This document shows, in pieces, positions 9,262-57,164 of a stretch of DNA of 64,000 nt; the stretch's first letter is position 1, and each line of letters begins with the position of its first letter. The position numbers were made by a program, and so were the translations under genes. The notes under the pieces were generated by a model. That model saw nothing but the letters and a program-made list of their open reading frames with translations. It made no database searches and was not told the origin of the DNA. This DNA comes from a candidate division WOR-3 bacterium (lineage in GTDB: Bacteria > Hydrothermota > Tepidihabitantia > SM23-42): contig JAFGPO010000139.1 in NCBI GenBank assembly GCA_016936155.1, forward strand, positions 156-64,155. Reading direction: 5' to 3'.

Positions 9262-9303
9262 AAAAATGGACGGAGAACGAGTATATGAGAGGGACGTTTG
9301 ATA

Positions 9304-10317: not shown

Positions 10318-13143
10318 ATGCCGATCTTCCTCCTTACTGATATAGAAAGATCAACCGAAAAATGGGAGAAACACCGCGACAAAATGGGGGAGGTCCTGAT
10401 CCGCCATGATCAGATATTGAAACAGACGATCGAGAAATTCAAAGGGGATATTGTCAAACATACTGGCGATGGGGTATTCGCGGTATTCTGCCAGGGCGCT
10501 CCTCTTCACTGCGCGATTGAACTGCAGAAACGCTTTGAAAATGAAAAATGGAACGAGGTTGGTGAAATCAGAATACGGATCGGCATCCATGCTGGCGATG
10601 CGGAGAAACGGGGGAACGACTATTTTGGCGCGACGGTGAATCGCACTGCCCGCATCATGGAAGCCGCGTGGGGCGGCCAGATCGTCCTGACGCCGGAAGT
10701 CATTACTGCATGCACCACACCCCCGGGCGCCACGCTCCAGGACCTGGGCATTCACATGCTTCCCGATCTTGGAGAACCGCAGCAGATCTACGGACTCGTG
10801 CATCCCGATCTTGCACTCACTGAATTCCCGGCTCTGCGTTCCTTATCCGCACACCCTCATAATTTGCCTGCGCAGCCAACGCCGTTTGTCGGCCGCATCA
10901 GAGAACTGGAAGAACTTGCCAAATTGATCGATAATCCGAAATGCCGGCTGATCAATGTGGTCGGACCAGGAGGTATTGGTAAAACCCGGCTCGCAATCCA
11001 GGCGGCGGCGGACAAGATCAACAAATTCCGCCATGGCGTGTACCTGATTCCACTCGATGCGCTGACCATCGGCTCTATCCAATTTCTCGTATTCACGATC
11101 GCGAATGCGCTAAAGTTCTCGTTTTACAGCCGGGAAGACCCTAAACTTCAGCTTATAAATTACCTGCGCGAAAAGGAGATGCTCATGGTCATGGATAACT
11201 TTGAGCACCTCATAGCTGAAGCCGAGCTCCTGACCGAGATATTCGAGAATTGCCCGCATATAAAATTCCTCGTAACATCGCGTGAACGGTTACGTTTAAG
11301 AGGCGAATGGATTATTGAGATCAAGGGGATGGATTTTCCGGATCGAGCGCATGCTGACAAGTTCGATGAATACAGCGCGATCCAGCTTTTTATGCAGAGC
11401 GCCCAGCGCGTGAAGCCGGATTTCGTTCTTGCCCAAAATGATGAAGCGGCAATTGTGCAGATATGCGATGCTGTATCCGGGATACCGTTGGGCATTGAAC
11501 TCGCCGCATCATGGGTTAGATCCCTGTCATGTTCTGAGATCGCCCAGGAGATCGGCAAGGGACTTGATTTCTTGACCACGACCTTACAGGATGTCCCAAA
11601 ACGGCATCAGAGTCTGCGCGGTGTGTTCGATTATTCATGGAACCTGCTGACCCGGAAAGAAAAAAACACCTTTCGCGGGCTTGCGGTTTTCCCGGATGGA
11701 TTTCAGCGTGACGCCGCGCAGAGTATTCTTGCTGCGTCCCTGTCCGAATTGACCGTACTCGCGGATAAATCACTCATCCGCCGCAAACCCAATGGCCGGT
11801 ACGAATTGCTGCAGATCCTCCGCCAGTTTGCGCAGGAGCAGCTTGAAAAAAATCCAGCAATCAGAGATACAGTCCATGATGCGCACTGCGCATACTATGC
11901 CAATGTGCTTGATCGTTATGAAGAGAAATTCAAAGAAAGTGATCCCCCGGAATTCTACACGATGATGAGCGGGGAGATCGAGAACATTCGGGCGGCATGG
12001 CAGTGGGGAGTTGAGCACTGCCACATTGAGGACCTCGCTGAATTGCTCAAAGGGATGTTCCGGTTCTACGAGCGTAGGGGATGGCTGCATGAGGCAGAGC
12101 AGATCTTCCGGATTACCGCGGAAATGATGCGGATCAAATTCACTGCGCCGTTCGAGCACGATACCCACAAGGCGTTCTACAGCGCGACGATCGCCCGATG
12201 GGGGGGGATATGCAGACGGCTATCCTTGTATGAGCAGGGGCGGGATCTTCTCGAGGAGAGCTTATCCTATGCAAGAGAGCTCAACAACACAAAAGCGATG
12301 GCGTTCGCCTATAATGAACTCGGGGTGATCGCGTATCGTTTTGGCGAATTTATTAATGCTAAACAGCTGCATAAACAGGCATTAAAGATTCGCGAAGAGA
12401 TCGGAAATCAACGGTTGATCACTGCATCGCTCAATAACCTTGCGGTCGTCGTGTATGCCCTTGGTGATTATAACGAAGCAAAACGCCTCCACGAACAGGC
12501 GCTGTCCATACGCCAGAGGATCAATGATACGTATGGCATTGCCACCTCATTGAACAACCTCGGCAATGTCATGCACAGCCTGGGTAACAGCGCAAAGGCG
12601 AGCTCACTTTACGAACAGAGTCTTGTCCTGCGGCGCACGCTCAATGACCGGCTCGGTATCGGATCGTGTCTTAATAATCTAGGGTTATGCGCGGAAAACC
12701 TGGGGGATCTGGAAAGAGCCCGGCAACTGTACGAGGAAAGTGTAGCGCTCAAGATGGAGATCGGCGATACGCGTGCCGCGGCAAACACGCTTGATAATCT
12801 TGGCCGGATAAGCGAGAAATCAGGCGATGATGCGGGCGCCCGCAGGTATTACCGTGAATCCCTTACCATGCTCAGGACGATCAAAGCGATGCCGACCACA
12901 CTTGCGGTTGTCGCGACGATCGGGAAGTTTTTCCTGGGCATCCACAAGTATGACCTTGCGCTCATTTGTGCTGTGCTTGTTCAACACCACCCAGCCGCGA
13001 TCAGTGAGTCCAGGGAAACCGCCTCGGCCATCCTGGCTGAACTGGTGCACAAGTTACCCGCACAAACGATCGACCATGTCCGTAATGAGACTGAAACACA
13101 GCGTGCGGAAAATGTGCTGGAAATGATAATTGCTGCCCTCTAG
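10318..13143 (+). CDS. Class III adenylate/guanylate cyclase - STAND (NB-ARC-like) ATPase - TPR fusion protein
   Basis: Cyclase motifs: IFLLTDIERST, GDGVFAVF, IRIGIHAGDAEKRGNDYFGATVNRTARI. Walker A VVGPGGIGKTRLA. The C-terminal third has repeated TPR units (LNNLA/LNNLG...Y..A...). Confidence 0.8.
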   Translation: MPIFLLTDIERSTEKWEKHRDKMGEVLIRHDQILKQTIEKFKGDIVKHTGDGVFAVFCQGAPLHCAIELQKRFENEKWNEVGEIRIRIGIHAGDAEKRGNDYFGATVNRTARIMEAAWGGQIVLTPEVITACTTPPGATLQDLGIHMLPDLGEPQQIYGLVHPDLALTEFPALRSLSAHPHNLPAQPTPFVGRIRELEELAKLIDNPKCRLINVVGPGGIGKTRLAIQAAADKINKFRHGVYLIPLDALTIGSIQFLVFTIANALKFSFYSREDPKLQLINYLREKEMLMVMDNFEHLIAEAELLTEIFENCPHIKFLVTSRERLRLRGEWIIEIKGMDFPDRAHADKFDEYSAIQLFMQSAQRVKPDFVLAQNDEAAIVQICDAVSGIPLGIELAASWVRSLSCSEIAQEIGKGLDFLTTTLQDVPKRHQSLRGVFDYSWNLLTRKEKNTFRGLAVFPDGFQRDAAQSILAASLSELTVLADKSLIRRKPNGRYELLQILRQFAQEQLEKNPAIRDTVHDAHCAYYANVLDRYEEKFKESDPPEFYTMMSGEIENIRAAWQWGVEHCHIEDLAELLKGMFRFYERRGWLHEAEQIFRITAEMMRIKFTAPFEHDTHKAFYSATIARWGGICRRLSLYEQGRDLLEESLSYARELNNTKAMAFAYNELGVIAYRFGEFINAKQLHKQALKIREEIGNQRLITASLNNLAVVVYALGDYNEAKRLHEQALSIRQRINDTYGIATSLNNLGNVMHSLGNSAKASSLYEQSLVLRRTLNDRLGIGSCLNNLGLCAENLGDLERARQLYEESVALKMEIGDTRAAANTLDNLGRISEKSGDDAGARRYYRESLTMLRTIKAMPTTLAVVATIGKFFLGIHKYDLALICAVLVQHHPAAISESRETASAILAELVHKLPAQTIDHVRNETETQRAENVLEMIIAAL

Positions 13144-13745: not shown

Positions 13746-14987
13746 ATGGGAAAAGTCGTTCTTGCGTATTCCGGAGGTCTGGATACATCGGTATTGATTG
13801 CGATGCTCCGGGAGAAATATAACGCTCAAGTGATCGCCGTGACCATTGATTTGGGACAACATGAGGATCTCGCTGCGATCAAAGACAAGGCGCGCTCGAT
13901 CGGAGCGGTTGATGCATTCACGATCGACGCACGCGAGGAGTTCGCTCACAAGTACATCGTCCCATCATTACAAGCGAACGCCCTGTATGAGAATGTCTAT
14001 CCGCTCGCCACGGCGCTGGGACGCCCGCTGATCGCGGATAAGCTCATTCAAGTCGCACACGCGGTCAATGCGACCTCGATCGCGCATGGTTGCACCGGGA
14101 AAGGGAATGATCAGGTACGGATCGAGTCAGCGCTTGCATACCTTGACCCGTCAATTCATATTCTTGCGCCGGTCCGCGAGTTCTCTCTGTCACGTGACTA
14201 CGAACTTAAATACGCGCAGGAGCACGCGATTCCGGTTGAAAAAGCGGCAAGCACCTTTTCGATCGACGAGAACTTGTGGGGACGCAGCGCTGAATGCGGT
14301 GCTCTGGAGCAGGAGGATTGCGAGCCGCCAGAACAGGCCTTTGCATGGACCCAGTCCCCGCTTGATGCGCCGAATTACAGCGCGTACTGCGAATTGACAT
14401 TCGAACACGGCGTGCCAATTGCTTTCAATGGAAAACGCATGGCACTCGTCGATCTGATCCAGGAACTGAACCGGATCGGCGGGTTGCACAGTATCGGACG
14501 TATTGACCATATCGAATCCCGGCTGGTCGGCATCAAATCGCGCGAAGTATACGAAGCTCCGGCCGCAAAGATTTTAATCCAGGCGCATCAGGATCTGGAA
14601 AAGCTCGTATTGACACGGGACGTGCTCCACTTTAAGCCGGTTATCGAACATACGTTCGCGGATTGCGTATACAATGGCCTGTGGTTCTCACCGCTGCGCC
14701 AGGCATTATCCGGATTTACCACGCAGATACAGGAGAATATCACGGGAACCGTTAAAATGAGATTATACAAGGGATCAGCGATTGTGATCGGGCGCACTGC
14801 GGAAAAAGGGTTGTATGTCAAAGACCTGGCGACCTATGAAGGCGCCGATGAATTCGATTCGCGTGCGGCAAAAGGATTCATCCAGATCTGGTCTTTGCCC
14901 TATAAAGTATACTCGATCAAAAACAACGGGCATTCCGCGCGCGCGCTCCCGGATCTACCGGTTGCTGTTGACAGCACCGCAATCTGA
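13746..14987 (+). CDS. argG: Argininosuccinate synthase
   Basis: N-terminal KVVLAYSGGLDTSV ATP-binding motif. Family-typical sequence runs the full length (HGCTGKGNDQVR). Confidence 0.95.
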   Translation: MGKVVLAYSGGLDTSVLIAMLREKYNAQVIAVTIDLGQHEDLAAIKDKARSIGAVDAFTIDAREEFAHKYIVPSLQANALYENVYPLATALGRPLIADKLIQVAHAVNATSIAHGCTGKGNDQVRIESALAYLDPSIHILAPVREFSLSRDYELKYAQEHAIPVEKAASTFSIDENLWGRSAECGALEQEDCEPPEQAFAWTQSPLDAPNYSAYCELTFEHGVPIAFNGKRMALVDLIQELNRIGGLHSIGRIDHIESRLVGIKSREVYEAPAAKILIQAHQDLEKLVLTRDVLHFKPVIEHTFADCVYNGLWFSPLRQALSGFTTQIQENITGTVKMRLYKGSAIVIGRTAEKGLYVKDLATYEGADEFDSRAAKGFIQIWSLPYKVYSIKNNGHSARALPDLPVAVDSTAI

Positions 14988-20017: not shown

Positions 20018-21814
20018 TTACCGTATCAATAATACTTTGTCTGAGATATGCTGATCCTTGCTCGTGACATGCAGGAAATACACGCCGTTTGCAACCAGCG
20101 CGCCGCTGTGATCCCTGGCATCCCAGGTGATGTGTGGATCCGTGACCCGGGCGTACCTGCGTACAAGACACCCGCTCGCATCGTAGATCATGATGTCCAC
20201 GGGAGAGGAACAGCTCTTGAGGATGATATTCAGCGTATTCGTGAACGGATTCGGCATCGCGTTCATTATTATGACATGCTTTTTATTAATTTCGTTGCTT
20301 CCGAGAATGATCGGGACGGTCACGTCGTCGACGTACCAGCCTTCGTCAATGACGCTCTGGTCGCTCAAGAAACGGAAGCGGAGCCGTACGGTTTGACCGT
20401 GATATGCGGTGAGAGCATGGACCTTTTCGATCCATGATGTCTGCATGCCGTTCAGCTCACCGAGAATCTGCCACCAGCCCTTGTTGTTGTCGATCTCCAC
20501 GTAGCTGTAATCCCAGTCGGTTTCCAGCCGGTACTGGGTCCAGTAGTGGAGCGCGCTGTCCGGGGTTACGACAAAATACGGAGAGATGAGGGATGCGTCA
20601 TTGAGATTAGTGTATTGGTGCGAGGACTCGAGTCCGCTGTACCAGGAGTGACTCGATGAATGGCTCTTATGGGTCGTGAGGTGCCAGTTGTCATTGATGC
20701 CGCCGAATCCCGAATGTGTCCACTGCCCTTCGCCCGATTCCATGTCATCACTGAATCCGGATTGGTCAACGACCAGGAACGAGACATCATCCTGATATCC
20801 GCCGCCGAAAACCACCGCAAACGTCCATGTGTACGGTGTCGGACAACTGCCGGTCACGAATGCATCGACCGTGATCACCACATCAGCATCACCCTGTTCC
20901 AAGGACACTGATTGCGGGCTCGTGGAATTGACTGTCACGTACGGATCGGACGATGATATCGCCGCGGGGCCCGTGTAGGTTCCGCCGCCCTGATTCTTGC
21001 CCGTGATGTACAGGCGCATGGACTCGCCCGGTTCGACAAACCCGTTGCCATTGCCGCTCAGTTCATCAACCGAGTGCCCGTAGTAATCCATGCGCGGCGT
21101 GCTCATGATCTTGATCTCTACCGCCTGGTAGATCTCGCGCGATGATCCCTGGACAAACGATACGATATAGCATTCGTCTTCATCCCAGGTATTGTCAATC
21201 GTGAAGGCTTGAGACCGGATGATTGTGTCGCTTGCCGGGATCGTGACCGCAGTGCCGGTGGCGCTGGGCACCATATCCCTCATTACGTGATCGACATCAG
21301 TCATCCCTCCCCAACTGTAGGGGATATTATTCTCGATGACCACAAAGTGCAGGTTGCCGCTGATCGCGCTGCTCGTGGTATTCTCCACAAGCGCGGTGAT
21401 CGTGCCGGTATTGCTGCCGGAATTGTATGAACAGGTCAGATCGATGATCAGGGGACTGGAAATCCCGGCTCGTGTTGTCAGATGATGACGGTAGATGGGA
21501 AACATGGTTCCGGGAAATGCTACACCACCAGTTTCCTGTATTGATCCGTCGATCCTGACGATCGGCGTGCCGGTGATGCTGTAGTAACTGGCACGCTGTG
21601 ATGCTTCGGCAGTATAGAACGGATAAGATGATGAGATGTGGTAGCCTATGACTACTAATGAATCATAGGAACGATCATGATTTTCAGCAAGACCTCTTGC
21701 TGCTCCAGGGCAGTATGCTCAACCCCCGACCCGGGTAAACTCCTCCATGACCACGACGCGCTGCGCCGCAAACGCGGTGGCGAGAAGAAGAAAAACAAGA
21801 CATATCTTTTTCAT
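20018..21814 (-). CDS. T9SS-sorted secreted protein with N-terminal thioredoxin-like domain, with in-frame TGA (21721-21719) as candidate selenocysteine (UxxC)
   Basis: SD AAGGAG precedes ATG 21814. Signal peptide is MKKICLVFLLLATAFA. Then VVVMEEFTRVGG-TGA-AYCPGAARGL continues in frame into the 495-aa track ORF. The C-terminal CTD reads IMIYDASGCLV...NGVYFLHV...KVLLIR. A pseudogene is the alternative. Confidence 0.6.
21685..21702 (-). other. Candidate bacterial SECIS stem-loop
   Basis: On the mRNA strand: UGA, 16 nt, then CAGCAAG-AGGU-CUUGCUG. The stem is a perfect 7 bp and the loop contains GGU. Confidence 0.45.
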
Positions 21815-21834
21815 ACCCATCTCCTTGTACTGTA

Positions 21835-21863: not shown

Positions 21864-22039
21864 GACTTTAGGATAGTAAAGATACCACTCTTCGATTACA
21901 AAGATAAATGAAAAATGACAGGGTAATGGCGTCCATGCAGAATTCCCTTTCCTCCTTGAGAGGAGGGGGCCTGGGTGAGGAGGGAACAGGAATATCTCGG
22001 TAATCTCAAATGTCAAGAAATAGCCATTTTTGCCATTTC

Positions 22040-22066
22040 TGTCAAAATCACTGACATATTTGTCAC
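22040..22066. promoter_or_regulatory. Distal upstream activator-like palindromes (TGTCA-N7-TGACA-N4-TGTCAC)
   Basis: Half-sites at 22040-44, 22052-56 and 22061-66. TGACATATTTGTCAC has the same architecture as the proximal site. Confidence 0.4.
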
Positions 22067-22135
22067 AAGAAATGTTTTCGCAAAGCGTTATTTTTCAATG
22101 CTTCACGCGAAATTGAATAATATGCCGCATAAACC

Positions 22136-22151
22136 GTGACAAATCTGTCAC
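22136..22151. promoter_or_regulatory. Proximal upstream activator-like palindrome GTGACAAATCTGTCAC
   Basis: Perfect 6-bp arms GTGACA / TGTCAC separated by 4 nt. Centre lies about 48 bp upstream of the -24 GG. Confidence 0.45.
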
Positions 22152-22190
22152 AACCGTAAAAATTTAACCCGAAATTTCGAGCCAAATCCC

Positions 22191-22206
22191 TGGCACGAAA
22201 ATTGCT
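22191..22206 (+). promoter_or_regulatory. Sigma-54 (-24/-12) promoter upstream of the RiPP precursor gene
   Basis: cTGGCACGaaaaTTGCTt matches YTGGCACG-N4-TTGCW at every specified position. GG is at 22192-93 and GC at 22204-05. Confidence 0.65.
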
Positions 22207-22327
22207 TATATATACTAAGTACATTTATATAGTGGACAGGCATGAAAAAGTAGAGTTCCACATATTCGTATTGTGCTTTGTTGTTTCCCGGGAATATGAA
22301 GCCATTGTGAAAGGGGGTGAGTTCAGC

Positions 22328-22474
22328 ATGCATGATAAACTACGATCGTCGATTGATCAAGCAGGTCTTAAAGAGGACTTTCTTGCTATGGCCGATCAGG
22401 CTTATGGAACAGTTCCTAAGTGTGGCATAGCATGTGCTCCTGGGTGCATTATCATGAGTCCTGCTATTGAATGA
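22328..22474 (+). CDS. RiPP precursor peptide candidate (48 aa, CX3CX3C core)
   Basis: MHDKLRSSIDQAGLKEDFLAMADQAYGTVPKCGIACAPGCIIMSPAIE. SD AAGGGGGTGA sits 7-8 nt before the ATG. It is the in-frame C-terminal part of track ORF 22202..22474. The radical-SAM gene starts 58 nt downstream. Confidence 0.6.
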   Translation: MHDKLRSSIDQAGLKEDFLAMADQAYGTVPKCGIACAPGCIIMSPAIE

Positions 22475-22485
22475 GAAACACCGGA

Positions 22486-22511
22486 GTGGGGGGTGAATGT
22501 TTGCCCCCCAC
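22486..22511 (+). promoter_or_regulatory. GC-rich stem-loop between the precursor and maturase genes
   Basis: GTGGGGGG-tgaatgtttg-CCCCCCAC. Perfect 8-bp stem with no T-run after it. Confidence 0.5.
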
Positions 22512-22532
22512 CTGTACTGTAAGAGGTATAAC

Positions 22533-23969
22533 ATGATAGAGTGTGATATTAATGATATAATGAAAAATAATTTACGTATTGTGTTGAATCCGAAATTACG
22601 GATGCGTAAGGATATCGATAGAATATATATATTCCCGGTGAATCCCTTTACCTACCAGGAAAAGAACAAACGCATTTACATCAAACCCGCAGAAGCTGTC
22701 ACGCTTGCGCTATTTGATGGTAAGAAGAGGTTAATCGATGTCGTTCATGATATCACAAACATACTACACATTACTGAAGATACCGCGACGCGCATCATTA
22801 GAAATATTATAAAGCGCTACAATGAGTATATGGTCGATGTAGATCGACTAACCGACGAGATTATCACCTATGATCCAGTTGATTTTATTATCCCGAAAGA
22901 AAAGATTGATACCCATACAATTTTCCCCAAAATTCCTGAAATTATCATGTTTATCCCCACTTTTGCCTGTAATTTTGCCTGCAGGTATTGTTATGCGCCA
23001 AAGAGTGCACCCCGTAATGTTCTTCATTTGGATATTATTGATTCATTCCTGAAACAACTTGCAAAATGGAAGCTACCATCCCTTTTCTTCTCGGGCGGAG
23101 ATCCTTTTTGCCATCCACACATCACAGATATCCTGCAATTATGTGTCAATTATAAGATTAAACCTATTATACCGACAAAATCGATACTAACGCGCGATCA
23201 GATAGCATGTTTGCAAAAACTCGGCATAGATGAGATACAAATGAGTATTGACACAATCCAGCCGCAAAAATGCTGTGACCTGCTTGGTGCGAGAGAAAGC
23301 TATATGAATGATATGCTCCAGCAGATTCGATTCTTAACCATGAATGGTATCAAGGTGTATTCGAACAGCGTGCTCACATCCAGTACTATTCATGCCATTC
23401 CCTTGTTGGTGGAACACCTTTACGCACTGGGGGTGCGACGCATGAGTTTCAGTCAGTATTCCCGCTCCTTATTCTGCCATCAGGACGAGTTATTCTGCAA
23501 ATCGGAGAGCTATGAGTGGTTTGATCACGAAATTCAAATGCTGCAACAACGGTTTCCGCAATTGAAAATTTCATATAAAAATATGAAGGATCCGACTTTC
23601 ATGACACAGCAGGAAAAAGAGGCTTTTTTTCAGAACCGCCCAAATTGTACGGCAGGGAAGATGGGCGTGGTTATCTTACCCGATGGAAAAGTTACCGTGT
23701 GTGAAACGCTATATTACAACAGCGATCTAATGCTTGGTGACCTTCAACAGACATCGATAGAGGATATATGGAATTCCGCAGAACGCCATAATATAATAAC
23801 GCGATCACCACAAAGATTGACTTCAGATATCTGTACATCATGCCCGGAAGTCGAATATTGTTATCTTATAAAAGGAAAATGTTATGTTCGTGCGCTCCAG
23901 GCGTATGGCAGCGTTAAGATGCCCGATCCATACTGCCCCAAGAGCCCAGCGGGGAGGAGGATATTGTGA
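22533..23969 (+). CDS. Radical SAM / SPASM-domain peptide maturase with N-terminal RRE (PqqD-like) region
   Basis: CX3CX2C cluster in FIPTFACNFACRYCYAP. C-terminal auxiliary-cluster cysteines occur in CTAGKMGVVILPDGKVTVC and CTSCPEVEYCYLIKGKCY...PYCP. The ~100 aa before the cluster look like an RRE. Start chosen at ATG 22533 (SD AAGAGGT); ATG 22497 is the alternative. Confidence 0.85.
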   Translation: MIECDINDIMKNNLRIVLNPKLRMRKDIDRIYIFPVNPFTYQEKNKRIYIKPAEAVTLALFDGKKRLIDVVHDITNILHITEDTATRIIRNIIKRYNEYMVDVDRLTDEIITYDPVDFIIPKEKIDTHTIFPKIPEIIMFIPTFACNFACRYCYAPKSAPRNVLHLDIIDSFLKQLAKWKLPSLFFSGGDPFCHPHITDILQLCVNYKIKPIIPTKSILTRDQIACLQKLGIDEIQMSIDTIQPQKCCDLLGARESYMNDMLQQIRFLTMNGIKVYSNSVLTSSTIHAIPLLVEHLYALGVRRMSFSQYSRSLFCHQDELFCKSESYEWFDHEIQMLQQRFPQLKISYKNMKDPTFMTQQEKEAFFQNRPNCTAGKMGVVILPDGKVTVCETLYYNSDLMLGDLQQTSIEDIWNSAERHNIITRSPQRLTSDICTSCPEVEYCYLIKGKCYVRALQAYGSVKMPDPYCPKSPAGRRIL

Positions 23970-25186
23970 TGATAAAAGCTGGGGTTCTTGGCAAATGCGA
24001 CTTTGTTTTTCTTGAGAAACCTATTTTCACAAATATATATGGAGTACAAATTAATTGCGGTTCTCAGGATGATCCTGTCGGCACACCAGGCATCGCTCAT
24101 CTTCTTGAACATGTCATTTTTCATTCGAGTCCAGCCCAGGATATTATCCGTGGGGGAGGGTGCGTACAGGCCATGACAGAGCGTGAAAAAACTACGTATA
24201 TCTGCCAGATTCCCACTAACTACAACTGCCTTTTCAATCGATTTCTAGATTCCATTCTCACTCCCGCTTTTAATCAGGAGAGCATTCACAAAGAGAAACA
24301 AAGTGTATTAGATGAATATGCTGCAGTACATAAAGATGGAATCGTTAGAATCATTGATTCATTATACCAACTCATGTTTCCTAAGCAGGGACTGGGCAAG
24401 CCAGTACTCGGCTGCCCAGCAGCTATTCAGCAGATCGAAGTCGAAGACCTTGTTACTTTTCACGCAAAACACTATCAACTATCGAATATTGTTGTCATCC
24501 AGATGGGTTCAGCGATCAATTCCACATATATGCCGAATGGTGGGGTGTTTCGTCATGTGCATAGAACGGATTCATTCAGCACCAAGATCAATACCGGAAT
24601 GCCCAAATTCGGTTGGGAGGTTTCTTCCACAAACAGTAATATATTTCTTCTTGGTTTCCCGGTTTATACAGGAAGTGATAATAAAAAAAGTGCCTTGGTT
24701 CTCCTTGAACGGATGCTCCAACGGTTTGCCGATGAATATGTCATGTCATGCAATGACCTGCATGCTTTAACCTGGCAGTTTTCATTTCAATGCAAGCTCT
24801 ACCGTGATGTCGGAATTCTGTTTTGTCTTATTGCTGGAAAGGGGCAAATCTGTAAACGATTTCTCAGTCAGTTGCGCGAAAAAGTAAAGCAGTTCATCCG
24901 GAATGGATTTACCGATATGCAAATATATGATACTTATAAATTCAGCATAAATTACCACCATACTATGATTGCAGATCCGCTAACGGAAATCAAGACTGCC
25001 TTGCAGGACGTGATTCAGAGTGCAAACATCGGGGAGTATGAAGGGCGAGTTACATCTCCGATTTCAAGGGTAAACAGAAATGTAATGAACACTGTTGCGG
25101 AGTATATTTTTGCGCCTTCTGCTATGCATTATTACGCGAAATGTAGTGCTGATATGTACAGTCTACCGTACATTATACACATATGA
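23969..25186 (+). CDS. M16 (pitrilysin) family zinc peptidase, probable leader peptidase
   Basis: Inverted zincin motif HLLEH (GIAHLLEHVIFH). Downstream motif EKQSVLDEY. The start overlaps the maturase stop (TGATG). Confidence 0.8.
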   Translation: MIKAGVLGKCDFVFLEKPIFTNIYGVQINCGSQDDPVGTPGIAHLLEHVIFHSSPAQDIIRGGGCVQAMTEREKTTYICQIPTNYNCLFNRFLDSILTPAFNQESIHKEKQSVLDEYAAVHKDGIVRIIDSLYQLMFPKQGLGKPVLGCPAAIQQIEVEDLVTFHAKHYQLSNIVVIQMGSAINSTYMPNGGVFRHVHRTDSFSTKINTGMPKFGWEVSSTNSNIFLLGFPVYTGSDNKKSALVLLERMLQRFADEYVMSCNDLHALTWQFSFQCKLYRDVGILFCLIAGKGQICKRFLSQLREKVKQFIRNGFTDMQIYDTYKFSINYHHTMIADPLTEIKTALQDVIQSANIGEYEGRVTSPISRVNRNVMNTVAEYIFAPSAMHYYAKCSADMYSLPYIIHI

Positions 25187-26142
25187 AATTGCATTCTCAA
25201 AGAGATGGTGCTCCGGACGTAGCAATACAAGTCGAGAAACTGAATAAATGCTATGGTTCCAAGCAGGTACTTGATAATGTGAGTTTTTCAGTGAAGAGGA
25301 GTGAGTGTTTTTGCCTTTTAGGTCCCAATGGCGCCGGTAAAACCACGGCCATGAAGATCATCACTGGAATGTTGAGTGGAGACACCGGAATCGTTGAAGT
25401 AAAAGGTATGACCATTACTGAATTACGCAAAAGAGAACGTGGATACATTACGTTAATCCCGCAATATGCTAATCTTGATCCCTTGTTAACAGTTGAAGAA
25501 AACCTGATCTTTTATGGATTGCTTCAGAAGATGAGATACAAGGAAATACACTCCAGAGTCGTCAAATTACTGCGGGTATTTGAGATCGCCCATCTAAAAA
25601 AACAGGTAACCCATCGTTGTTCAGGAGGCGAATACCAGCGCTTGTTGGTTGCCAGAGCGTTCTTGCGACCAGCCGAGATCATTTTTATGGATGAGCCAAC
25701 TGCTGGCATCGATATATTATTTAAAAACATACTTTGGGACTATTTTATTGAGGAAAAAACACGAGGGAGGACGATATATTTGAATACTCACGACCTGAAT
25801 GAAGCAGAAGTCCTGGCTGATCGAATAGGATTTCTATTACATGGAAAGCTCATTGCCATTGATACACCGAGCAGATTAAAATCTCTTGTGCAGGGTGTGC
25901 ATGTATCCGTGAAATGTAGTAATATCATATATCACACAGAGTTGTTCGCAGAGCATAAACACACGCTGATAGATGATAAGACCATTGTGTTACAAGTTGC
26001 TACTGTTGACGCTGCTATTATAAGGTTACTTGAGAGGTTATCCACTATCAACCATATCCTTAATGTTGAGATCACTCAGCCTTCCCTCAATGACGTTTTT
26101 AAGAAACTTGGGGCAGTGAATGCTAGCGATACTGTGGCGTGA
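25183..26142 (+). CDS. ABC transporter ATP-binding protein (ABC-2 type exporter)
   Basis: Walker A GPNGAGKTT. Signature CSGGEYQRL. Walker B IIFMDEPTAGID. ATGA overlap with the M16 gene. Confidence 0.9.
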   Translation: MKLHSQRDGAPDVAIQVEKLNKCYGSKQVLDNVSFSVKRSECFCLLGPNGAGKTTAMKIITGMLSGDTGIVEVKGMTITELRKRERGYITLIPQYANLDPLLTVEENLIFYGLLQKMRYKEIHSRVVKLLRVFEIAHLKKQVTHRCSGGEYQRLLVARAFLRPAEIIFMDEPTAGIDILFKNILWDYFIEEKTRGRTIYLNTHDLNEAEVLADRIGFLLHGKLIAIDTPSRLKSLVQGVHVSVKCSNIIYHTELFAEHKHTLIDDKTIVLQVATVDAAIIRLLERLSTINHILNVEITQPSLNDVFKKLGAVNASDTVA

Positions 26143-26878
26143 AATCCGGCTCCATTATACAAAGCCATACTGGCTGATAGCCAATTTTGTTACACCGCTA
26201 TTCTATTTAGCGTTCTTTGGAGTTTTATTTTCCAACGCGATCAATACTGTAACTTTTCATGGCTCTGAATTCAGTTATCTTCATTTTTTTATTCCCGGGC
26301 TTATCGCTATGCAATCCTTTTTATCATGGTCCCACACACTTGCGCTCGTGAACCTTGATCGACGAGCCCGCGTTCTTGAAGTGATTTCCATGTCCTCGAC
26401 ACATCTTGATGAATATTTTTATGGACGTCTCATTGGCACACAAATTCTGGTCATTATCAAGACCTCGGTATTGCTGGGTATTGCAGTAATATTCTTTAAT
26501 TTTCCCGTAAGGTGCGTATACAGCATAGTAATCTTCGTTCTATTATTGATCATAAGTAATTGCATATGGTTCAATATTGGATTCATATTGGGATTCCTGA
26601 TTCGAACAGAGGACATACGTGACATAGTAATGCAGTTGATTACTCTACCTCTTACCTTTTTGTCCAATATCTATTATCCCGTTGAGAGCCTTACTGGCAT
26701 TTTACGCGCAATTGTATACGCAAATCCATTGACTCACGCCACAACTGTCATTCGTATAGTTCTCCTCATAAATGGAAGCATCCAGATTTCCTCCATCGTC
26801 ATATTGAGCATATACTTCACTATTACTATTATACTGGTTTATATAGGTCTACATAAATTCTGCGCTCGTCTGGAGTAG
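26120..26878 (+). CDS. ABC-2 family transporter permease
   Basis: 252 aa with about 6 hydrophobic segments. Overlaps the ATPase gene by 23 nt. Confidence 0.75.
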   Translation: MLAILWREIRLHYTKPYWLIANFVTPLFYLAFFGVLFSNAINTVTFHGSEFSYLHFFIPGLIAMQSFLSWSHTLALVNLDRRARVLEVISMSSTHLDEYFYGRLIGTQILVIIKTSVLLGIAVIFFNFPVRCVYSIVIFVLLLIISNCIWFNIGFILGFLIRTEDIRDIVMQLITLPLTFLSNIYYPVESLTGILRAIVYANPLTHATTVIRIVLLINGSIQISSIVILSIYFTITIILVYIGLHKFCARLE

Positions 26879-26933
26879 TAGATATTCCAAATGGTTCTAT
26901 CGATATAGCTAAACGACATAAAAATCTGTCACA

Positions 26934-28084
26934 ATGGCAATGATTGAATCATCGCCATTATGGAAGAACCGATCGTTTATACTCTACCTGGTTGGTCAGT
27001 CGATCTCTGCGCTCGGCGATGACTTCTATCTCATCGCATTCATGTGGCTTGCAATGGAGATCTCCGGTGGCAGGGGAATTGCGGTTGGTGGTATTTTCAG
27101 CATTTATATGCTCAACGAAGTTGTATTTGGGTTTATTGCTGGACCGATCGCCGATAGAATAAACAAAAAGAGACTATTGATTTTTGTCGATGTCATACGC
27201 GGCTTGTTTGTCGTAATCCTGTTCATGCTCGTAAGGCGTGGAATGGCAACCATTACGCAGCTCTATGTTATCACGTTTTGCTTTTCGTTGGTCTCGCCAT
27301 TCTTTCATCGGACCGAATTCACCATAATCCCCTTTATTCTGGACGCAAAAGTGCTGCTGCGTGGCAATGGAACACTGGCTGGGTTCCGGCGCCTTATGCA
27401 GGTGATCGCTCCGGCAATAGGTGGTGTGGTCATTGCCCTGATTGGCATTGAGAGTTGTTTCCTCATCGATAGTATAACCTTCTTCATTTCATCGGTATGC
27501 ATCGCAGGTGTGGCTGTAAAGCAAGTCCAGCAGAAAAAGGAAGTTCTTACCTTGGAGGCCCGATACTGCCATTGTTGCCTCTGCTCGCTCAGAAGAGAGA
27601 TGTCGGGGCTTCCGGGTATGGTATCATGATGAGCGCTCTTTCCGTGGGTCTCATTGTTTCTGGATTCATTATTGGATTTTTTGAAAAGTGTTTCAGCAAG
27701 ATACGGTTGATTTTGGTTGGTTTGTTATTATCATCAATATCCATTCTCTTGATTGGCGTATATCCCCGCGCTTTTGTAATCGTCGGATCGATGTTCCTGC
27801 TTGGTCTAGGTTTGAATATTTCCAATTTACCTATCATTACTCTTTTTCAAACCAAAGTTAATCCGGCAAAAATTGGTGTTGTCTCGAGTTTTGTATTTAC
27901 AATTGCCCAGGCCGCACAGCCGATTTCCATTGCTTTAAGCGGTATTCTCGCGGATTTCATCATCTTGAATACCTTATTTATTATAATTGGAACTCTGTTA
28001 CTCCTTGGAACCATAATCGGCTTTCTCCTCGCGCAATTTAGAGAAAACAAGACCATCTTCATTAATATCAAAGAATCGCATTAA
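26934..28084 (+). pseudogene. MFS transporter (MFS_3 / EntS-like), disrupted
   Basis: Two overlapping ORFs in different frames (26934..27629 and 27497..28084). The N-terminal half has about 6 TMs and the C-terminal half only about 5. The frame change lies near the A5 run at 27533-27538. Confidence 0.6.
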
Positions 28085-28120
28085 TAAATGAATAATATCT
28101 CAAAACAATCATATTCAAAA

Positions 28121-28155
28121 TTGAACAAATTGGGGCCTGTCCCCATTTTGTTCAA
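28121..28155. repeat. REP-like palindromic hairpin (left)
   Basis: TTGAACAAATTGGGG-CCTGT-CCCCATTTTGTTCAA. 15-bp arms with a single mismatch. Confidence 0.7.
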
Positions 28156-28185
28156 TTTCAACTAAGAGAAAAGATAAGAGAATAG

Positions 28186-29055
28186 ATGGCGCGAGGATCT
28201 CGTTTGGTCGCTGCTGGTCTGTACCACCACGTATTTAATCGGGGCAATGATCGCCACCCGATATTTAAGCGGGAGGAGGATTACCACAGGTACTTGCGAT
28301 ATTTAGAGATTTTTAGTCCCACATTCAATATCAACATTGTCGCATTCACGTTGATGGAATGGCACATTCACTTGTTTCTATATGATAGAAAAGGGGAAAT
28401 GTCGTCTTTTATGCATTTGTTGCACGGTAAATACGCACGTTTGTATAATATATGTCACGAAAGGACAGGCCATGTGTTTACCGATCGATTCAAGAACAAA
28501 ATAGTGGATACAAATACATATGGTAAATGGCTATCTCGATATATTCACCGTCAGGCGGTGGATGCTGGCCTTGTAGAAAAGGCAGAGGATTATCCCTGGA
28601 CCAGCTATCATCACTACATCGGTCGAACGGAAATGCGTTTTGTATCTTCTGATACGATACTGGAGCAATTCAGTGAAAATAAGCAAGAACAAGTTTCATT
28701 ATACAGAAAATTCATTGAAGATGAGGAAGCAGGCCCAATAGACTGGAGACAAACGGAAATAAATGTCAATCCTATTATTGGAAATAGAGAATTTATTGAG
28801 AAAATGACTCGAAAATTAGGATTATATGATAAAAAATCATGTGAAATGCAGGATGTAATAGAGAAAATCTGTGTTGATTACGGCGTTAATCTTGACGCTA
28901 TGAAATATCCATCCGGAAATAAAGAACGAGCTACACGTCGGTATTTAATAAAAATGCTAAATCACAACCGCGGGATGAGTGTATCAGCGATTGCAAAAGG
29001 TTTGAATATCTCAAAAGGTCTTGTTTCAATGACATTGAATAATGAGGAATATTAA
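28186..29055 (+). CDS. REP-associated tyrosine transposase (Y1_Tnp / IS200-like) fused to a C-terminal DnaA-domain-IV-like HTH
   Basis: HUH motif WHIHLFL. Catalytic-Tyr context LSRYIHRQAV. The N-terminus YHHVFNRGNDRHPIF is typical of COG1943. The C-terminus RRYLIKMLNHNRGMSVSAIAKGLNISKGLVS resembles Bac_DnaA_C. Confidence 0.8.
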   Translation: MARGSRLVAAGLYHHVFNRGNDRHPIFKREEDYHRYLRYLEIFSPTFNINIVAFTLMEWHIHLFLYDRKGEMSSFMHLLHGKYARLYNICHERTGHVFTDRFKNKIVDTNTYGKWLSRYIHRQAVDAGLVEKAEDYPWTSYHHYIGRTEMRFVSSDTILEQFSENKQEQVSLYRKFIEDEEAGPIDWRQTEINVNPIIGNREFIEKMTRKLGLYDKKSCEMQDVIEKICVDYGVNLDAMKYPSGNKERATRRYLIKMLNHNRGMSVSAIAKGLNISKGLVSMTLNNEEY

Positions 29056-29065
29056 GTAATAATAA

Positions 29066-29100
29066 TTGAACAAAATGGGGACAGGCCCCAATTTGTTCAA
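29066..29100. repeat. REP-like palindromic hairpin (right, inverted copy)
   Basis: TTGAACAAAATGGGG-ACAGG-CCCCAATTTGTTCAA. Exact reverse complement of the left copy. Confidence 0.7.
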
Positions 29101-29124
29101 TTTTGAAGCGAAAAAATAGTTATT

Positions 29125-29826
29125 TTACCCCGATAATTTAAATTGGATTGGTATTGAAACCCAGACCTTTACGGGTTTGCCGGCGTGGCTGGCTGGTTCG
29201 AACACGGATTGTTTCACCGCGGACAGGGCTGCGTTGTCCAGGGATTCATCGCCGCTCGAGGCGTACACTTCAGTTGCGCTGATGCTCCCGTCAAATTCAA
29301 TGAGCGCCCGCACCACGGTCCGGCCTTCAATGCCGTTTTTCCGCGCCTGCTCCGGGTACTCGGGTTTTACGATGTTTACAGGCGTAGGTTTTACGTCGAC
29401 AATATGGTAGGCAATGATATTCGGATCCTTTTCAAGATCTGTTGGTGTTTGGGCATGATGATCAGTCAATGTAAACCTGATCGGGATTGACACCCACACC
29501 CGGACCGGCTTGTCCCCGTGGCGCGCCGGCTTGAACATGGCAGCCTGCACTGCCTCGAGCGCGGCATTGTCCAAAATTTCAAATGAACTGGATTTCTGTA
29601 TCATGGCTTGCTCTATCCTGCCGTCCGCCCCAACCAGCACTTTGGTCAGGATATCGCCCTGAATACCTTGATTTTTCGCTTGTTCTGGGTATACGGGTTT
29701 GGGAAGGGAAATGGGTTTTGGCTTGACCTCGACGTCGTCATACGCCATGACCGGGGCCTGGGATGAACATGTGATGCACAGGCACAAGACTATACTGGTA
29801 ATCGCCAGGACGATCACATTCTTCAT
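29125..29826 (-). CDS. TonB-family protein with two tandem TonB C-terminal domains
   Basis: The unit KP.YPE.A...GI.G...V...I..DG.I......SSG...LD.AAL.AV....F.PA.H.GKPV.VWVSIPI.F occurs twice. N-terminal signal/anchor. Confidence 0.75.
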   Translation of the reverse strand: MKNVIVLAITSIVLCLCITCSSQAPVMAYDDVEVKPKPISLPKPVYPEQAKNQGIQGDILTKVLVGADGRIEQAMIQKSSSFEILDNAALEAVQAAMFKPARHGDKPVRVWVSIPIRFTLTDHHAQTPTDLEKDPNIIAYHIVDVKPTPVNIVKPEYPEQARKNGIEGRTVVRALIEFDGSISATEVYASSGDESLDNAALSAVKQSVFEPASHAGKPVKVWVSIPIQFKLSG

Positions 29827-29948
29827 AATTCCTCCTCAATTAATGATAATGCCGGGTGGATGCTTGTCAAGAGGCGAAAACCATAGAACATTCACTCCTT
29901 GACATGGACAAAAGAACCTCCTACAATATGGAGAAACAAGGAGGCGGT

Positions 29949-31331
29949 ATGGTAACATTACTTGTATATTTTGTGATATCCCAGCAGTGGTCGACGCCGG
30001 TGAATCTGGGCATATCCGGGATCGCCGATATTTACCCGCAAACACACAGGTCCCAGCAATGGTGGACGGATTCCCTGTGCCTCATGTGGCAGGCGTTTCA
30101 GGATGATAACTGGGAGATCTATTCGCGTTTTTCAACGGGATCGGCATGGAGCGATACGATCCGCGTCACCAATGATCCTTCTGATGACATACATCCCAGT
30201 GTCACCTATGACCCTTATTTGCACCGGTTCTGGTGTGTGTGGGAACGTGATGGTGATATCTATGCGTCCTATTACCAGTCACCATCATGGTCGATACCAG
30301 AAGCAATAACCAGCGGACCAGCATATGATCAGGATCCATCCATCTTTTGCCAGGATTCTTTTGTCCGCGTCGTGTGGCAGAGAACAATCAATGATTCCAC
30401 GAATATCTATGCCAGTTATCGCGTGTTATATTCTTCATGGGCTACTCCTGTTCCAATAACCCAGGACCAGGGAATTCCGAACGTCACGCCAAAGCTCAAT
30501 GCGGGCAATAATTACGCGATTGCCGTATGGCAGCATGGAGATGACATATATTACAGCACGAACAGCAGCAATTACTGGACAGCACCGCAGGCGATCACCA
30601 CCACATCGGCGCAGGAAATGTTCCCGGATGTTAATAGTTTTGACAACGGCTCAGTGTGCATTTGCTGGCAGTCTGATTCAACCGGCGATTATGAGATATA
30701 CCGGACTGCTGTAGATACATTCACCACCTATTACCGGGTCACGAATAACACTGCAGATGATTGGAATCCCTGTCCGCTTTTTTATACGATTCCGATTCTG
30801 CAATGGGAAATACCCATGATCCTGTTTGCGAGCAGGCGAAACGGCAACTTTGATATTTTTTCCTGGCTTGATTGGTCCGGAGCGGTTCCTGTGGACACGG
30901 ATCCGGGACAGGATATCAATCCGGTTTGCACGGCCAATTTTGATGTCTACATCTGGGCGCTGTGGCAGAGCGACCGGAACGGTGATTGGGACATCTATGG
31001 TAGTTACCAGTTCAATCCAGGAAGCGTGGCGGAATCAGGTGAAGATCTTGCTGTTCCCTGGTGTACCGTGATCCCGAATCCGTTCCGAACTGAAACGCGT
31101 ATTGCGTATGGCGTAAGGCGTACTACAGCAGATAATACAGAAATCAGGATCTATGATATTGCTGGTATGTTAGTGAAATGTTGCCCTCGCAGTACGCATG
31201 ACGCATTACGCTGTACGATCATCTGGGATGGTACCGATCACTCAGGGCATCCGGTGGCGCCTGGTGTGTATTTCGTGCGGATTGAAACCGATCAAGGGGT
31301 GTTTCCGCGAAAAATCATAAAGATCGATTGA
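29949..31331 (+). CDS. Secreted repeat (beta-propeller-like) protein with T9SS C-terminal sorting domain
   Basis: Start at ATG 29949 after GGAGG. At least 7 repeats of the W(Q/E)..(D/N)..(W)(D/E)IY type. CTD reads NPFRTETRIAYGV...IRIYDIAGMLV...IIWDGTDHSGHPVAPGVYFVRI...KIIKID. Confidence 0.6.
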   Translation: MVTLLVYFVISQQWSTPVNLGISGIADIYPQTHRSQQWWTDSLCLMWQAFQDDNWEIYSRFSTGSAWSDTIRVTNDPSDDIHPSVTYDPYLHRFWCVWERDGDIYASYYQSPSWSIPEAITSGPAYDQDPSIFCQDSFVRVVWQRTINDSTNIYASYRVLYSSWATPVPITQDQGIPNVTPKLNAGNNYAIAVWQHGDDIYYSTNSSNYWTAPQAITTTSAQEMFPDVNSFDNGSVCICWQSDSTGDYEIYRTAVDTFTTYYRVTNNTADDWNPCPLFYTIPILQWEIPMILFASRRNGNFDIFSWLDWSGAVPVDTDPGQDINPVCTANFDVYIWALWQSDRNGDWDIYGSYQFNPGSVAESGEDLAVPWCTVIPNPFRTETRIAYGVRRTTADNTEIRIYDIAGMLVKCCPRSTHDALRCTIIWDGTDHSGHPVAPGVYFVRIETDQGVFPRKIIKID

Positions 31332-56515: not shown

Positions 56516-56531
56516 TGGCATGGCTGTTGCA
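56516..56531 (+). promoter_or_regulatory. Candidate sigma-54 (-24/-12) promoter upstream of the DUF4476 gene
   Basis: TGGCAT-ggctg-TTGCA has correct GG-N10-GC spacing. SD AAAGGAGG and ATG 56556 follow within 40 nt. Confidence 0.5.
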
Positions 56532-56555
56532 TTATACATAGGTAAAGGAGGTTGT

Positions 56556-57164
56556 ATGTGGACCAGCGTTGTGCTCTTCATGCTTATCAGTGTCTATCCT
56601 GGAGAAGTTATGATCAATGGACCAGAAGGTGCGGTCAGTATCGTGCTGCCGGATCAAGGGCAGTATATTGCAGATCAAGGTCACATGACGATCGGCGCGG
56701 TCTTGGCGAGCGTCAATGTGCGGTTGCATTTGCTGGAGGAATTGCATCGCGAACATGCGCTCTCGCCGCATGACTGTGCGCGCCTTATTAAAGAGATCCA
56801 ATTTCTGCTCACCTTACTGCCTGCCCAATTCTATTTCTCGCTCGACCCTTCCCTCTATTGTAATGATCCTGTTCAGCCGGTATACGCCATGTCCACCGGC
56901 GATTTTACGATTTTGGTCAAGGATCTTGACGAGGAGCTGTTCTCCGATGATAGGCTGAATCTTCTCCGGATCACCGCGTCCAGCCATTTCTTTTTAATTG
57001 AGCAAGTTGAAACGATCCTTGAGTATTTCACGTTTGAAGATGATAGAGTCGAGGCGGTAAGGATCTTGTATCCACAGATTTTGGATGATGAAAATGCTTA
57101 CCGCCTTTTTAAAAAATTTGTCTTCTCGAATTCCAAAAAAGAATTAGCCAAAATCTTGCAGTAG
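56556..57164 (+). CDS. DUF4476-like domain protein
   Basis: Start at ATG 56556 after AAAGGAGG. N-terminal hydrophobic segment. The C-terminal region FSDDRLNLLRITASSHFFLIEQVETILEYFTFEDDRVEAVRILYP resembles DUF4476. Confidence 0.5.
   Translation: MWTSVVLFMLISVYPGEVMINGPEGAVSIVLPDQGQYIADQGHMTIGAVLASVNVRLHLLEELHREHALSPHDCARLIKEIQFLLTLLPAQFYFSLDPSLYCNDPVQPVYAMSTGDFTILVKDLDEELFSDDRLNLLRITASSHFFLIEQVETILEYFTFEDDRVEAVRILYPQILDDENAYRLFKKFVFSNSKKELAKILQ

Follow-up and report, generated by a model that had tools for sequence, protein, structure and literature searches.

Radical S-adenosylmethionine (SAM) enzymes with a SPASM domain are a productive source of new chemistry among the peptides that are made by ribosomes and modified after translation (RiPPs). 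In the sbo-alb operon for subtilosin A, a precursor (SboA) is encoded together with a maturase that joins a RiPP recognition element (RRE) to radical SAM and SPASM domains (AlbA), a pair of M16-type peptidases (AlbE/AlbF), and an ATP-binding cassette (ABC) exporter/immunity pair (AlbC/AlbD). The SCIFF peptides and ranthipeptides (CteA-CteB, Tte1186a-Tte1186, and PapA-PapB) have Cys-rich cores and highly conserved precursors, and their maturases show the same RRE-radical SAM-SPASM architecture. SuiB acts on streptide, a KxxxW-type substrate, and the pathway for pyrroloquinoline quinone (PQQ) comprises PqqA, PqqE, a separate PqqD, and the M16 peptidase PqqF. We analyzed a 64,000-nucleotide stretch of DNA from a candidate division WOR-3 bacterium (contig JAFGPO010000139.1, positions 156 to 64,155; hereafter the window, whose numbering is used throughout), in which a first-pass annotation had proposed a RiPP locus; what it described was borne out in almost all respects. 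The 22.2-28.1 kb region is a real, intact gene cluster for a small Cys-containing peptide; the cluster type is familiar, and the peptide family is undescribed so far. It is clear that the cluster operates in the manner of an RRE-dependent radical SAM/SPASM RiPP pathway, with a CX3CX2C motif, a seven-Cys SPASM region, an RRE, and a precursor, but it falls outside the subtilosin-type, SCIFF-type, PQQ, streptide, and anaerobic sulfatase maturase (anSME) families. We consider it rather probable that the locus is an operon under sigma-54 control whose product is a ribosomal peptide that is modified by the radical SAM enzyme and exported.

Six elements lie on the + strand of this region, namely a 48-aa open reading frame (ORF), a radical SAM gene, an M16 peptidase gene, an ABC ATPase gene, an ABC-2 permease gene, and a split major facilitator superfamily (MFS) gene; the domains of all cluster genes were called with Pfam and NCBIfam scans. 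The 48-aa ORF (22328-22474, +) has its own Shine-Dalgarno sequence, as had been claimed (AAAGGGGGTGA, 6-16 nt upstream), and encodes MHDKLRSSIDQAGLKEDFLAMADQAYGTVPKCGIACAPGCIIMSPAIE. The peptide contains CX3CX3C with 8 residues beyond the last Cys, and can be divided into a leader of approximately residues 1-31 and a core of approximately CGIACAPGCIIMSPAIE. Almost identical 48-aa peptides were found at the same position in the related loci L001, L088/L089, and L091-L093, whose maturases are 64-67% or 95% identical to that of the window. The clade-2 loci L002/L003, L090, and L094 (maturase identity of 46-48%) carry MDKQNLKAMINQADLKDDFMRMTDISYNEQPRCGIACAPGCLIMSPAAT or a close variant, and L004/L005, whose maturase is a 39% relative, carry a peptide with ...PSCGICCAPGCVIMRVNVN. 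The leader positions L5, L14, D17, and F18 are invariant, as are P30, C32, G33, C36, A37, P38, G39, C40, I42, and M43.

In all loci of the peptide family that we examined, precursor and maturase are neighbors. Between the window and L088, the identity was 96% for the precursor, 67% for the maturase, 43% for the M16 peptidase, 61% for the ABC ATPase, and 72% for the ABC-2 permease, and the precursor codons differed by 18 synonymous and 2 non-synonymous changes. By this comparison the precursor is the most conserved of the cluster genes and is under strong purifying selection. Furthermore, a DNA scan of the JGI metagenome collection for codons of C-G-[IV]-x-C-A-P-G-C-x-I-M matched 6 contigs; a maturase homologue lay directly downstream in all five with downstream DNA, and the sixth ended after the peptide gene. 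A word-indexed protein search with the 48-aa peptide gave one match only, which reflects the sensitivity of the search rather than rarity. The precursors had no match in Pfam and NCBIfam scans, the latter taken to E 10. NCBIfam should include a SCIFF model; no precursor model in it credibly matched the five precursors scanned, and the sole match at E<=10, a PepV dipeptidase model at E 0.05, was judged to be due to chance. A literature search on the core motif found nothing relevant. Since the small ORF is co-conserved next to homologous maturases, as the first-pass annotation required of a true substrate, and since its changes are mostly synonymous, we take the locus as a genuine RiPP pathway and the small ORF as its precursor.

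The maturase gene (22533-23969, +) encodes 478 aa. Its longest ORF starts at 22497 (490 aa); nevertheless, the true start is probably ATG 22533, because an AAGAGG Shine-Dalgarno sequence precedes this codon and the homologues start at the corresponding position, while ATG 22497 sits in a conserved hairpin loop and residues 1-14 of the long ORF had a predicted local distance difference test score (pLDDT) below 50. The protein comprises an N-terminal domain (approximately 22578-22817), a radical SAM core (approximately 22953-23375; Pfam Radical_SAM, 2.6e-16), and a Cys-rich SPASM region (approximately 23646-23936; Pfam SPASM, 2.1e-11), in agreement with the earlier description. Sequence searches barely detected the N-terminal domain: a PDB sequence search with its profile gave no match, and the Pfam PqqD model matched one of 11 family members, at 0.005. 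The RRE call thus rests on predicted structure. In the AlphaFold2 model of residues 24-134 (pLDDT 92), three helices come after three to four strands (beta3-alpha3), and the top Foldseek matches of this model were almost all RREs, including TbiB1 (TM 0.75, root-mean-square deviation (rmsd) 2.6), the lasso B1 protein 6jx3 (TM 0.78), PqqD 5sxy, the PbtF RRE, ThcOx, NisB, MibB, TbtB, and MccB. The N-terminal domain is accordingly modeled as an RRE, which bears out the RRE-like N terminus noted before.

No NCBIfam model reached its cutoff with the maturase. The scores were 85.8 bits against a cutoff of 381 for PqqE (TIGR02109), 81 against 400 for GeoRSP, 43 against 850 for AlbA (NF012164), and 42 against 500 for KxxxW (TIGR04080). 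Among the 25 best NCBIfam matches, all far below cutoffs, there was no SkfB or StsB model and no CteB-, PapB-, or QhpD-like ranthisynthase model. The PDB search with a family profile returned PqqE (1.4e-28), SuiB (5.8e-22), the SkfB core (7e-18), CteB (5.8e-12), and anSME (2.7e-10), in this order; for SkfB the match covered the radical SAM core only. With the full-length AlphaFold model (pLDDT 88), the best Foldseek match was SuiB (3.7e-19, 470-495 aligned columns), followed by PqqE, SkfB, and CteB, with anSME lower at 1.5e-11. Two RiPP enzymes, PqqE and SuiB, are therefore closer to the maturase than anSME is, and the clustering with anSME that would have spoken against a RiPP enzyme was not seen. 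These results bear on a non-RiPP view, in which the small ORF would not be a real gene and the radical SAM enzyme would, like anSME, NirJ, and AhbD, act in the maturation of a protein or a cofactor. The maturase does have generic SPASM matches to NirJ, AhbC/AhbD, and a tungsten-cofactor maturase (approximately 60-70 bits in NCBIfam). However, the ORF is conserved under strong purifying selection and is always adjacent to the maturase, the enzyme has an RRE domain, and anSME ranks well below PqqE and SuiB; we give this view hardly any credence.

In a 19-sequence family alignment, the radical SAM motif CNFACRYC (C158-X3-C162-X2-C165) is invariant, and there are exactly seven further invariant Cys residues, C384-X17-C402, C446-X2-C449-X5-C455-X6-C462, and C480. 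The thioether formers CteB, PapB, and Tte1186 have a three-Cys auxiliary cluster 1 (AC1) with an open site and a four-Cys auxiliary cluster 2 (PMC10177961). The seven-Cys pattern of the maturase corresponds to this 3+4 scheme, also in the X17 that separates the first two Cys. This pattern is the main argument, a circumstantial one, for Cys-directed and probably thioether chemistry. The Cys-rich cores across the wider family lend further circumstantial support, and thioether crosslinking, which appears plausible, would be the likeliest chemistry of the maturase.

The partner genes follow closely, and all three junctions are located as first described: TGATG at 23967-23971 between maturase and M16 peptidase, ATGA at 25183-25186 between M16 peptidase and ABC ATPase, and a 23-nt overlap (26120-26142) between ABC ATPase and permease. 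Among the gene starts annotated before, that of the M16 gene is now placed at ATG 23969 and that of the maturase probably at 22533, while the other coordinates stand. The M16B-type zinc peptidase (23969-25186, +; 405 aa, or 406 aa if read from 23966) has the intact HLLEH that had been reported, and H45-x-x-E48-H49 together with the distal E117 is kept in all five M16 orthologues. It resembles MPP-beta and bacterial M16B proteases, PqqF also matches it, and no signal peptide was evident by eye at its N terminus. The gene evolves faster than any other in the cluster and is absent in the clade-2 loci L002, L003, L090, and L094, where the ABC ATPase gene directly follows the maturase gene. We presume that it is a leader peptidase, accessory in the family; M16 proteases are documented as leader peptidases in class III lanthipeptide pathways (PMC10885120). 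The ABC ATPase (25183-26142, +; DrrA-like; Pfam ABC_tran, 4.3e-29; TIGR01188, 213 bits) and the ABC-2 permease (26120-26878, +; DrrB-like; Pfam ABC2_membrane, 2.9e-19), both called correctly before, are found in every CGxxCAPGC-family locus that reaches far enough downstream. The predicted ABC-2 exporter is thus the most constant partner of precursor and maturase, and the conserved core of the cluster consists of the precursor, the maturase, the ABC ATPase, and the ABC-2 permease, with the M16 and MFS genes as accessories outside it.

The last gene (26934-28084, +), a Mef/EntS-like MFS efflux gene, is broken, as its earlier description as decayed implied. It is split into two frames (26934-27629 and 27497-28084), whose products match TIGR00900 positions 1-188 and 224-361, approximately 9 nt apart. 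Approximately 35 residues are missing near 27545; the gap in the profile and the change of frame indicate a deletion plus a frameshift, so that the gene is a pseudogene or an assembly error. MFS is absent in L001, in the clade-2 loci, and in L004/L005, and the contigs of L088 and L091 end at or within the permease gene. The description of the pathway as self-contained therefore goes too far for the six genes, as the M16 gene is missing in one clade and the MFS gene is present here only and broken. A terminator-like hairpin with a T-run at 28131-28155 (+) is the likely end of the operon.

The broken MFS gene could suggest that the cluster is a decaying relic that makes nothing in the source genome. 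The G+C content of the cluster is 41.6%, compared with approximately 50-51% in the flanks; the cluster and its right-hand neighbors (22001-30000) are 7-10 points below the flanking G+C, and a gene resembling a Y1 transposase adjoins the cluster. Nevertheless, the five other genes are full-length with intact catalytic motifs, the genes are retained at an unchanged chromosomal location in L091 (95%) and in the 64-67% relatives, where codon changes are mostly synonymous, and the Y1 gene is itself syntenic in L001. We regard a relic as very improbable. The G+C offset recurs in L001, L088, and L090 despite their different background G+C, and could reflect an old horizontal acquisition or a compositional bias of the genes. 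The Y1 gene (28186-29055, +) is of the IS200/REP type, with a weak match to a C-terminal helix-turn-helix (HTH) domain (Pfam E of approximately 0.004-0.007, below cutoff). Its L001 counterpart is 50% identical and directly follows the permease gene; because of this synteny, the gene looks resident, possibly domesticated, rather than recently inserted.

The 300 nt upstream of the precursor were strongly conserved in an alignment of the window, L091, L088, and L001. A sigma-54 (RpoN) type promoter, TGGCAC-gaaaa-TTGCt (22191-22206, +), lies 138 nt upstream of the precursor ATG, and the coordinate 22191, at which the first-pass annotation let the cluster begin, is its -24 element. The strict -24/-12 consensus has only two matches on both strands of the window; the second, TGGCATggctgTTGCA (56516-56531, +), is at the start of an ORF at 56520-57164. 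GGCAY-N5-TTGC occurs once, in the correct orientation, approximately 100-170 nt upstream of the peptide in every family locus with upstream DNA, and this conservation extends to the distant L004 clade. A sigma-70 scan gave no enrichment over shuffles. As judged from its sequence, the operon promoter is of the sigma-54 type. Our literature search for sigma-54 together with RiPPs found nothing relevant.

Upstream of the promoter are the distal palindromes TGTCA-N7-TGACA (22040-22056, +) and CTGACA-tatt-TGTCAC (22051-22066, +) and, 85 bp from the second of these, the proximal palindrome GTGACA-aatc-TGTCAC (22136-22151, +). GTGMCA-N4-TGKCAC, with one mismatch at most, has two matches in the 64 kb, both upstream of the precursor. 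In L001 and clade 2 the site reads GTGCCA-N4-TGGCAC, so that both arms have changed symmetrically. The palindromes are candidate upstream activating sequences (enhancers) for a sigma-54 activator. There are exactly two copies of the 12-mer AATCTGTCACAA in the 64 kb, one within the proximal palindrome (22142-22153) and one immediately before the MFS start codon (26923-26934); two matches were reached in 5 of 100 shuffles, and it may be a shared operator half-site. After the precursor stop there is a GC-rich stem-loop (22482-22513, +; -26 kcal/mol, z = -2.3, no U-tract). A 10-16 bp stem is found at the same place in eight loci, with a sequence that differs by lineage; it is a probable attenuator or mRNA-stabilizing hairpin, and its conservation in varied sequence fits differential expression of precursor and enzymes. 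An Rfam search of 21-29 kb gave no credible match.

The window encodes a sigma-54 activator (Sigma54_activat plus HTH_8; 9298-10239, +) that lacks an N-terminal sensor domain; the neighboring gene (10318-13143, +) encodes a 941-aa adenylate/guanylate cyclase-AAA_16-TPR (STAND-like) protein. In L006, a gene for such a bacterial enhancer-binding protein (bEBP) lies directly upstream of the cluster, beside three GGAAC-N6-GTTCC palindromes. The 39% identity between the two bEBPs is generic for the class, and no link of the window protein to the operon was established by it; the protein could nevertheless regulate the RiPP operon.

The gene set and its co-conservation, selection on the peptide, the modeled RRE fold, intact catalytic motifs, and conserved cis elements are what the comparisons show, whereas we infer the type of reaction, where the leader is cut, export, and what the product does for the cell. 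In the proposed pathway, an enhancer-binding protein would occupy the two GTGACA-N4-TGTCAC sites and activate the TGGCAC-N5-TTGC promoter. The 48-aa precursor would be translated from the first cistron, and the stem-loop after its stop would probably hold precursor mRNA in excess over that of the enzyme genes. The maturase RRE would bind the conserved leader (L-[KR]-x-x-[IV]-x-x-[AT]-x-L-[KR]-[ED]-D-F-[LM]), and the C158/C162/C165 cluster would cleave SAM, so that hydrogen is taken from a core residue. A core Cys thiolate, held on auxiliary cluster 1, which would have three protein Cys ligands only (C384, C402, and C462), would then attack the substrate radical to form a thioether. Up to three crosslinks would be possible in CGIACAPGCIIM, with 2 Da lost for each. 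Links to the alpha-carbon (sactionine-type) would be favored over beta or gamma links (ranthionine-type), because the conserved non-Cys residues of the core are aliphatic or small (G33, I/V34, A37, P38, G39, I42, and M43) and not the Asp, Asn, or Thr that act as acceptors in known ranthipeptides (PMC8326336). In loci that have it, the cytoplasmic M16B zinc peptidase would cut off the leader, probably near the invariant P30-x-C32, and the DrrAB-type ABC-2 pump would export the product and/or protect the producer.

Several points weigh against this pathway. With only 8 residues after the last Cys, a subtilosin-like nested hairpin cannot form, and the crosslinks could at most be partial or non-nested. 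In the close subfamily, C334 is also nearly invariant, and AC1 could have it as a fourth ligand. The best maturase matches are PqqE and generic SPASM proteins rather than thioether synthases (AlbA at 43 bits, and CteB reached with the family profile only), and SuiB, the best structural match, forms a C-C bond and not a thioether. In this superfamily, full-length similarity does not predict the reaction (Precord et al., PMC10288494), and the reaction type is thus unreadable from overall similarity. Moreover, clade 2 lacks the M16 gene, and leader removal by this peptidase is therefore not obligatory. The promoter assignment, finally, is drawn from sequence.

Less probably, in our view, the locus is a RiPP pathway whose maturase makes no thioether and instead catalyzes C-C or C-O crosslinking (as SuiB or DarE), epimerization, or an anSME-like oxidation of the Cys beta-carbon; the three Cys would then be disulfide or metal ligands or cluster-docking residues. 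The structural neighbor SuiB is a Lys-Trp C-C crosslinker and the sequence neighbor PqqE is also a C-C bond former, overall similarity does not predict the reaction, as stated above, and the invariant G, A, P, G, I, and M would be unusual acceptors compared with the Asp, Asn, or Thr of ranthipeptides (PMC8326336). However, the core is free of aromatic residues, with no invariant Trp, Tyr, or Phe, which rules out known cyclophane and streptide chemistry; Cys is the sole feature common to the cores across the maturase family; and the seven-Cys pattern would point to an open AC1 site like that of the thioether formers.

Returning to the thioether pathway, the analogy to subtilosin drawn by the first-pass annotation holds for the shared gene logic and is otherwise loose. 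The maturase scores far below the AlbA cutoff, and a single active M16 gene, dispensable in one clade, takes the place of the AlbE/AlbF pair. In addition, the core ends too soon after its three Cys for a nested hairpin, there is no indication of head-to-tail cyclization, and the cluster has a sigma-54 promoter and a diderm host. The sactipeptide arrangement of N-terminal Cys donors and C-terminal acceptors in a hairpin was likewise not found, with 8 residues following the third Cys. The failure to fall into a sactisynthase family is weak evidence, because sactisynthases are paraphyletic (PMC10288494). With the SCIFF peptides and ranthipeptides, the cluster shares a Cys-rich core with CX2-4C spacing, the seven-Cys auxiliary pattern with X17 between the first two Cys, the maturase architecture, and a highly conserved precursor. 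It differs in that CteB was matched at 5.8e-12 only with the family profile and aligned poorly in Foldseek (rmsd 15 A), the core has no conserved Asp, Asn, or Thr acceptor, and the host is not a clostridial-type organism. SuiB shares the three-domain layout and gave the best full-length structural match, but the identity is 16%, the KxxxW score is far below its cutoff, and the cluster substrate has no Lys-x-x-x-Trp motif.

Both NCBIfam and the PDB give PqqE as the best match by sequence, and an M16 peptidase accompanies the radical SAM enzyme in PQQ biosynthesis as well. Accordingly, a rival reading would place the peptide alongside PQQ and mycofactocin, as a precursor that gives a redox cofactor within the cell, or as a protein-like accessory, and not as the source of an exported natural product. 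The match of PqqF to the M16 peptidase and a precursor far more conserved than the enzymes, which is typical for cofactor precursors, are in line with this. On the other hand, the PqqE score is 86 bits against a cutoff of 381 and all scores are far below the cutoffs; PqqB, PqqC, and PqqD-type genes are missing, the RRE being fused here; the peptide has neither the Glu-X3-Tyr pair of PQQ nor the C-terminal Val-Tyr of mycofactocin; and a dedicated ABC-2 exporter is present and is the most constant partner in the family. A cofactor precursor is improbable on this balance.

No curated precursor or maturase family fits, and the product can be assigned to no named class, as had been claimed. A bolder proposal is that the CGxxCAPGCxIM peptides found a new RiPP class whose crosslink type or topology is undescribed, the product being a near-invariant, sigma-54-controlled exported signal and not an antibiotic, in an uncultured phylum with the type IX secretion system (T9SS); thioethers on unactivated aliphatic, Gly, or Pro positions inside CX3C rings would be one example. 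We put this forward tentatively and consider it rather doubtful.

The maturase belongs to an uncurated and sizeable family. A word-indexed search of 5.8 billion proteins gave 23 maturase matches, and in an exhaustive hidden Markov model search over 1.84 billion representatives, at least 150 full-length proteins scored above 327 bits and 1,764 matches lay at E <= 1e-30; the family thus comprises at least 150 clusters at 50% identity. No relative was found among GTDB species representatives scanned with two maturase peptide patterns. Ten sampled members had no NCBIfam match at 1e-30 and generic source names, one of them from an Olavius algarvensis-associated symbiont. The nearest match beyond the family (P0022) is AlbA-like. 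Wherever the neighborhood is readable, a Cys-rich small ORF precedes the maturase homologue, and relatives down to 25% identity all have a Cys-rich neighbor peptide: ...DCESCEQSCKQSCKLSCSTNCKNG... in L006, three tandem copies of ...DCGKGCKEGCLTCQSGCSTCNTG... in L007, ...CLNCAGSCKSGISQPCASCASCQPSCASCY... in L100, a GG-leader peptide with ...SCGLGCFLGAGSG... and a C39-ABC transporter in L101, and ...SCEGGSCKYRCITCMNGSS... in L102. Cys is thus the one constant of the family substrates. In L007, the paralogous precursor genes (293-535, 849-1106, and 1683-1871) lie upstream of one distant maturase homologue; in L101, the C39-peptidase ABC transporter and GG-leader peptide stand in place of such tandem precursors. 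The claim that the precursor is not SCIFF-like holds for the 48-aa peptide but less so for distant relatives, whose maturases adjoin peptides such as DCESCEQSCKQSCKLSCSTNCK. The neighbor peptides of L006, L007, and L100 may be SCIFF-like.

Around the cluster, two further genes, of 431 aa upstream in L090/L002 and of 443 aa upstream in L088, were considered as cluster members and rejected, as they are non-homologous to each other and absent in the window. CBM9/DUF5916 proteins of approximately 700-760 aa lie directly downstream of the cluster in L004 (5918-8044) and L006 (3978-6269), and the window has one 23 kb away (50702-52822); this may be a functional link or merely lineage-specific abundance. 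Just upstream of the cluster, a T9SS-tailed Omp28/InhA-MAM protein is encoded on the - strand (20018-21820), with a single in-frame TGA (21719-21721) between the signal peptide and the remainder. The context EEFTRVGG-[TGA]-AYCPG corresponds to a thioredoxin-like UxxC motif, the TGA and motif are conserved in L001, L088, L091, and L092, and a conserved stem-loop, GCAGCAAGAGGUCUUGCUG, lies 19 nt downstream. TGA is a normal stop elsewhere in the window, which holds no tRNA-Sec. We regard the protein as a candidate for a secreted selenoprotein. FlgD_ig or Por_Secre_tail sorting domains form the C terminus of many proteins of the window, and the proposal of a T9SS-bearing, non-Firmicute host agrees with this diderm lineage rich in T9SS-type C-terminal sorting domains. 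ArgG (13746-14987) has its best GTDB match at 61% identity, with no close GTDB representative, and the host lineage, T9SS-bearing, seems to have been poorly sampled.

Another orphan radical SAM RiPP cluster alone would not surprise a specialist. What is new here is the conserved sigma-54 promoter with its two upstream palindromes, the stem-loop after the precursor, the seven auxiliary-cluster Cys, and the accessory status of the M16 and MFS genes. The system is small, with a 17-residue core and a single maturase, and it opens a way into a sizeable family of maturases for which there is neither a curated model nor a characterized member; this family is always paired with Cys-rich peptides and occurs in essentially uncultured lineages. 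The 96% identity of the peptide compared with 67% for the enzyme, together with the sigma-54/enhancer architecture, suggests that the peptide may serve a regulated physiological role such as signaling, rather than acting as an arms-race toxin.

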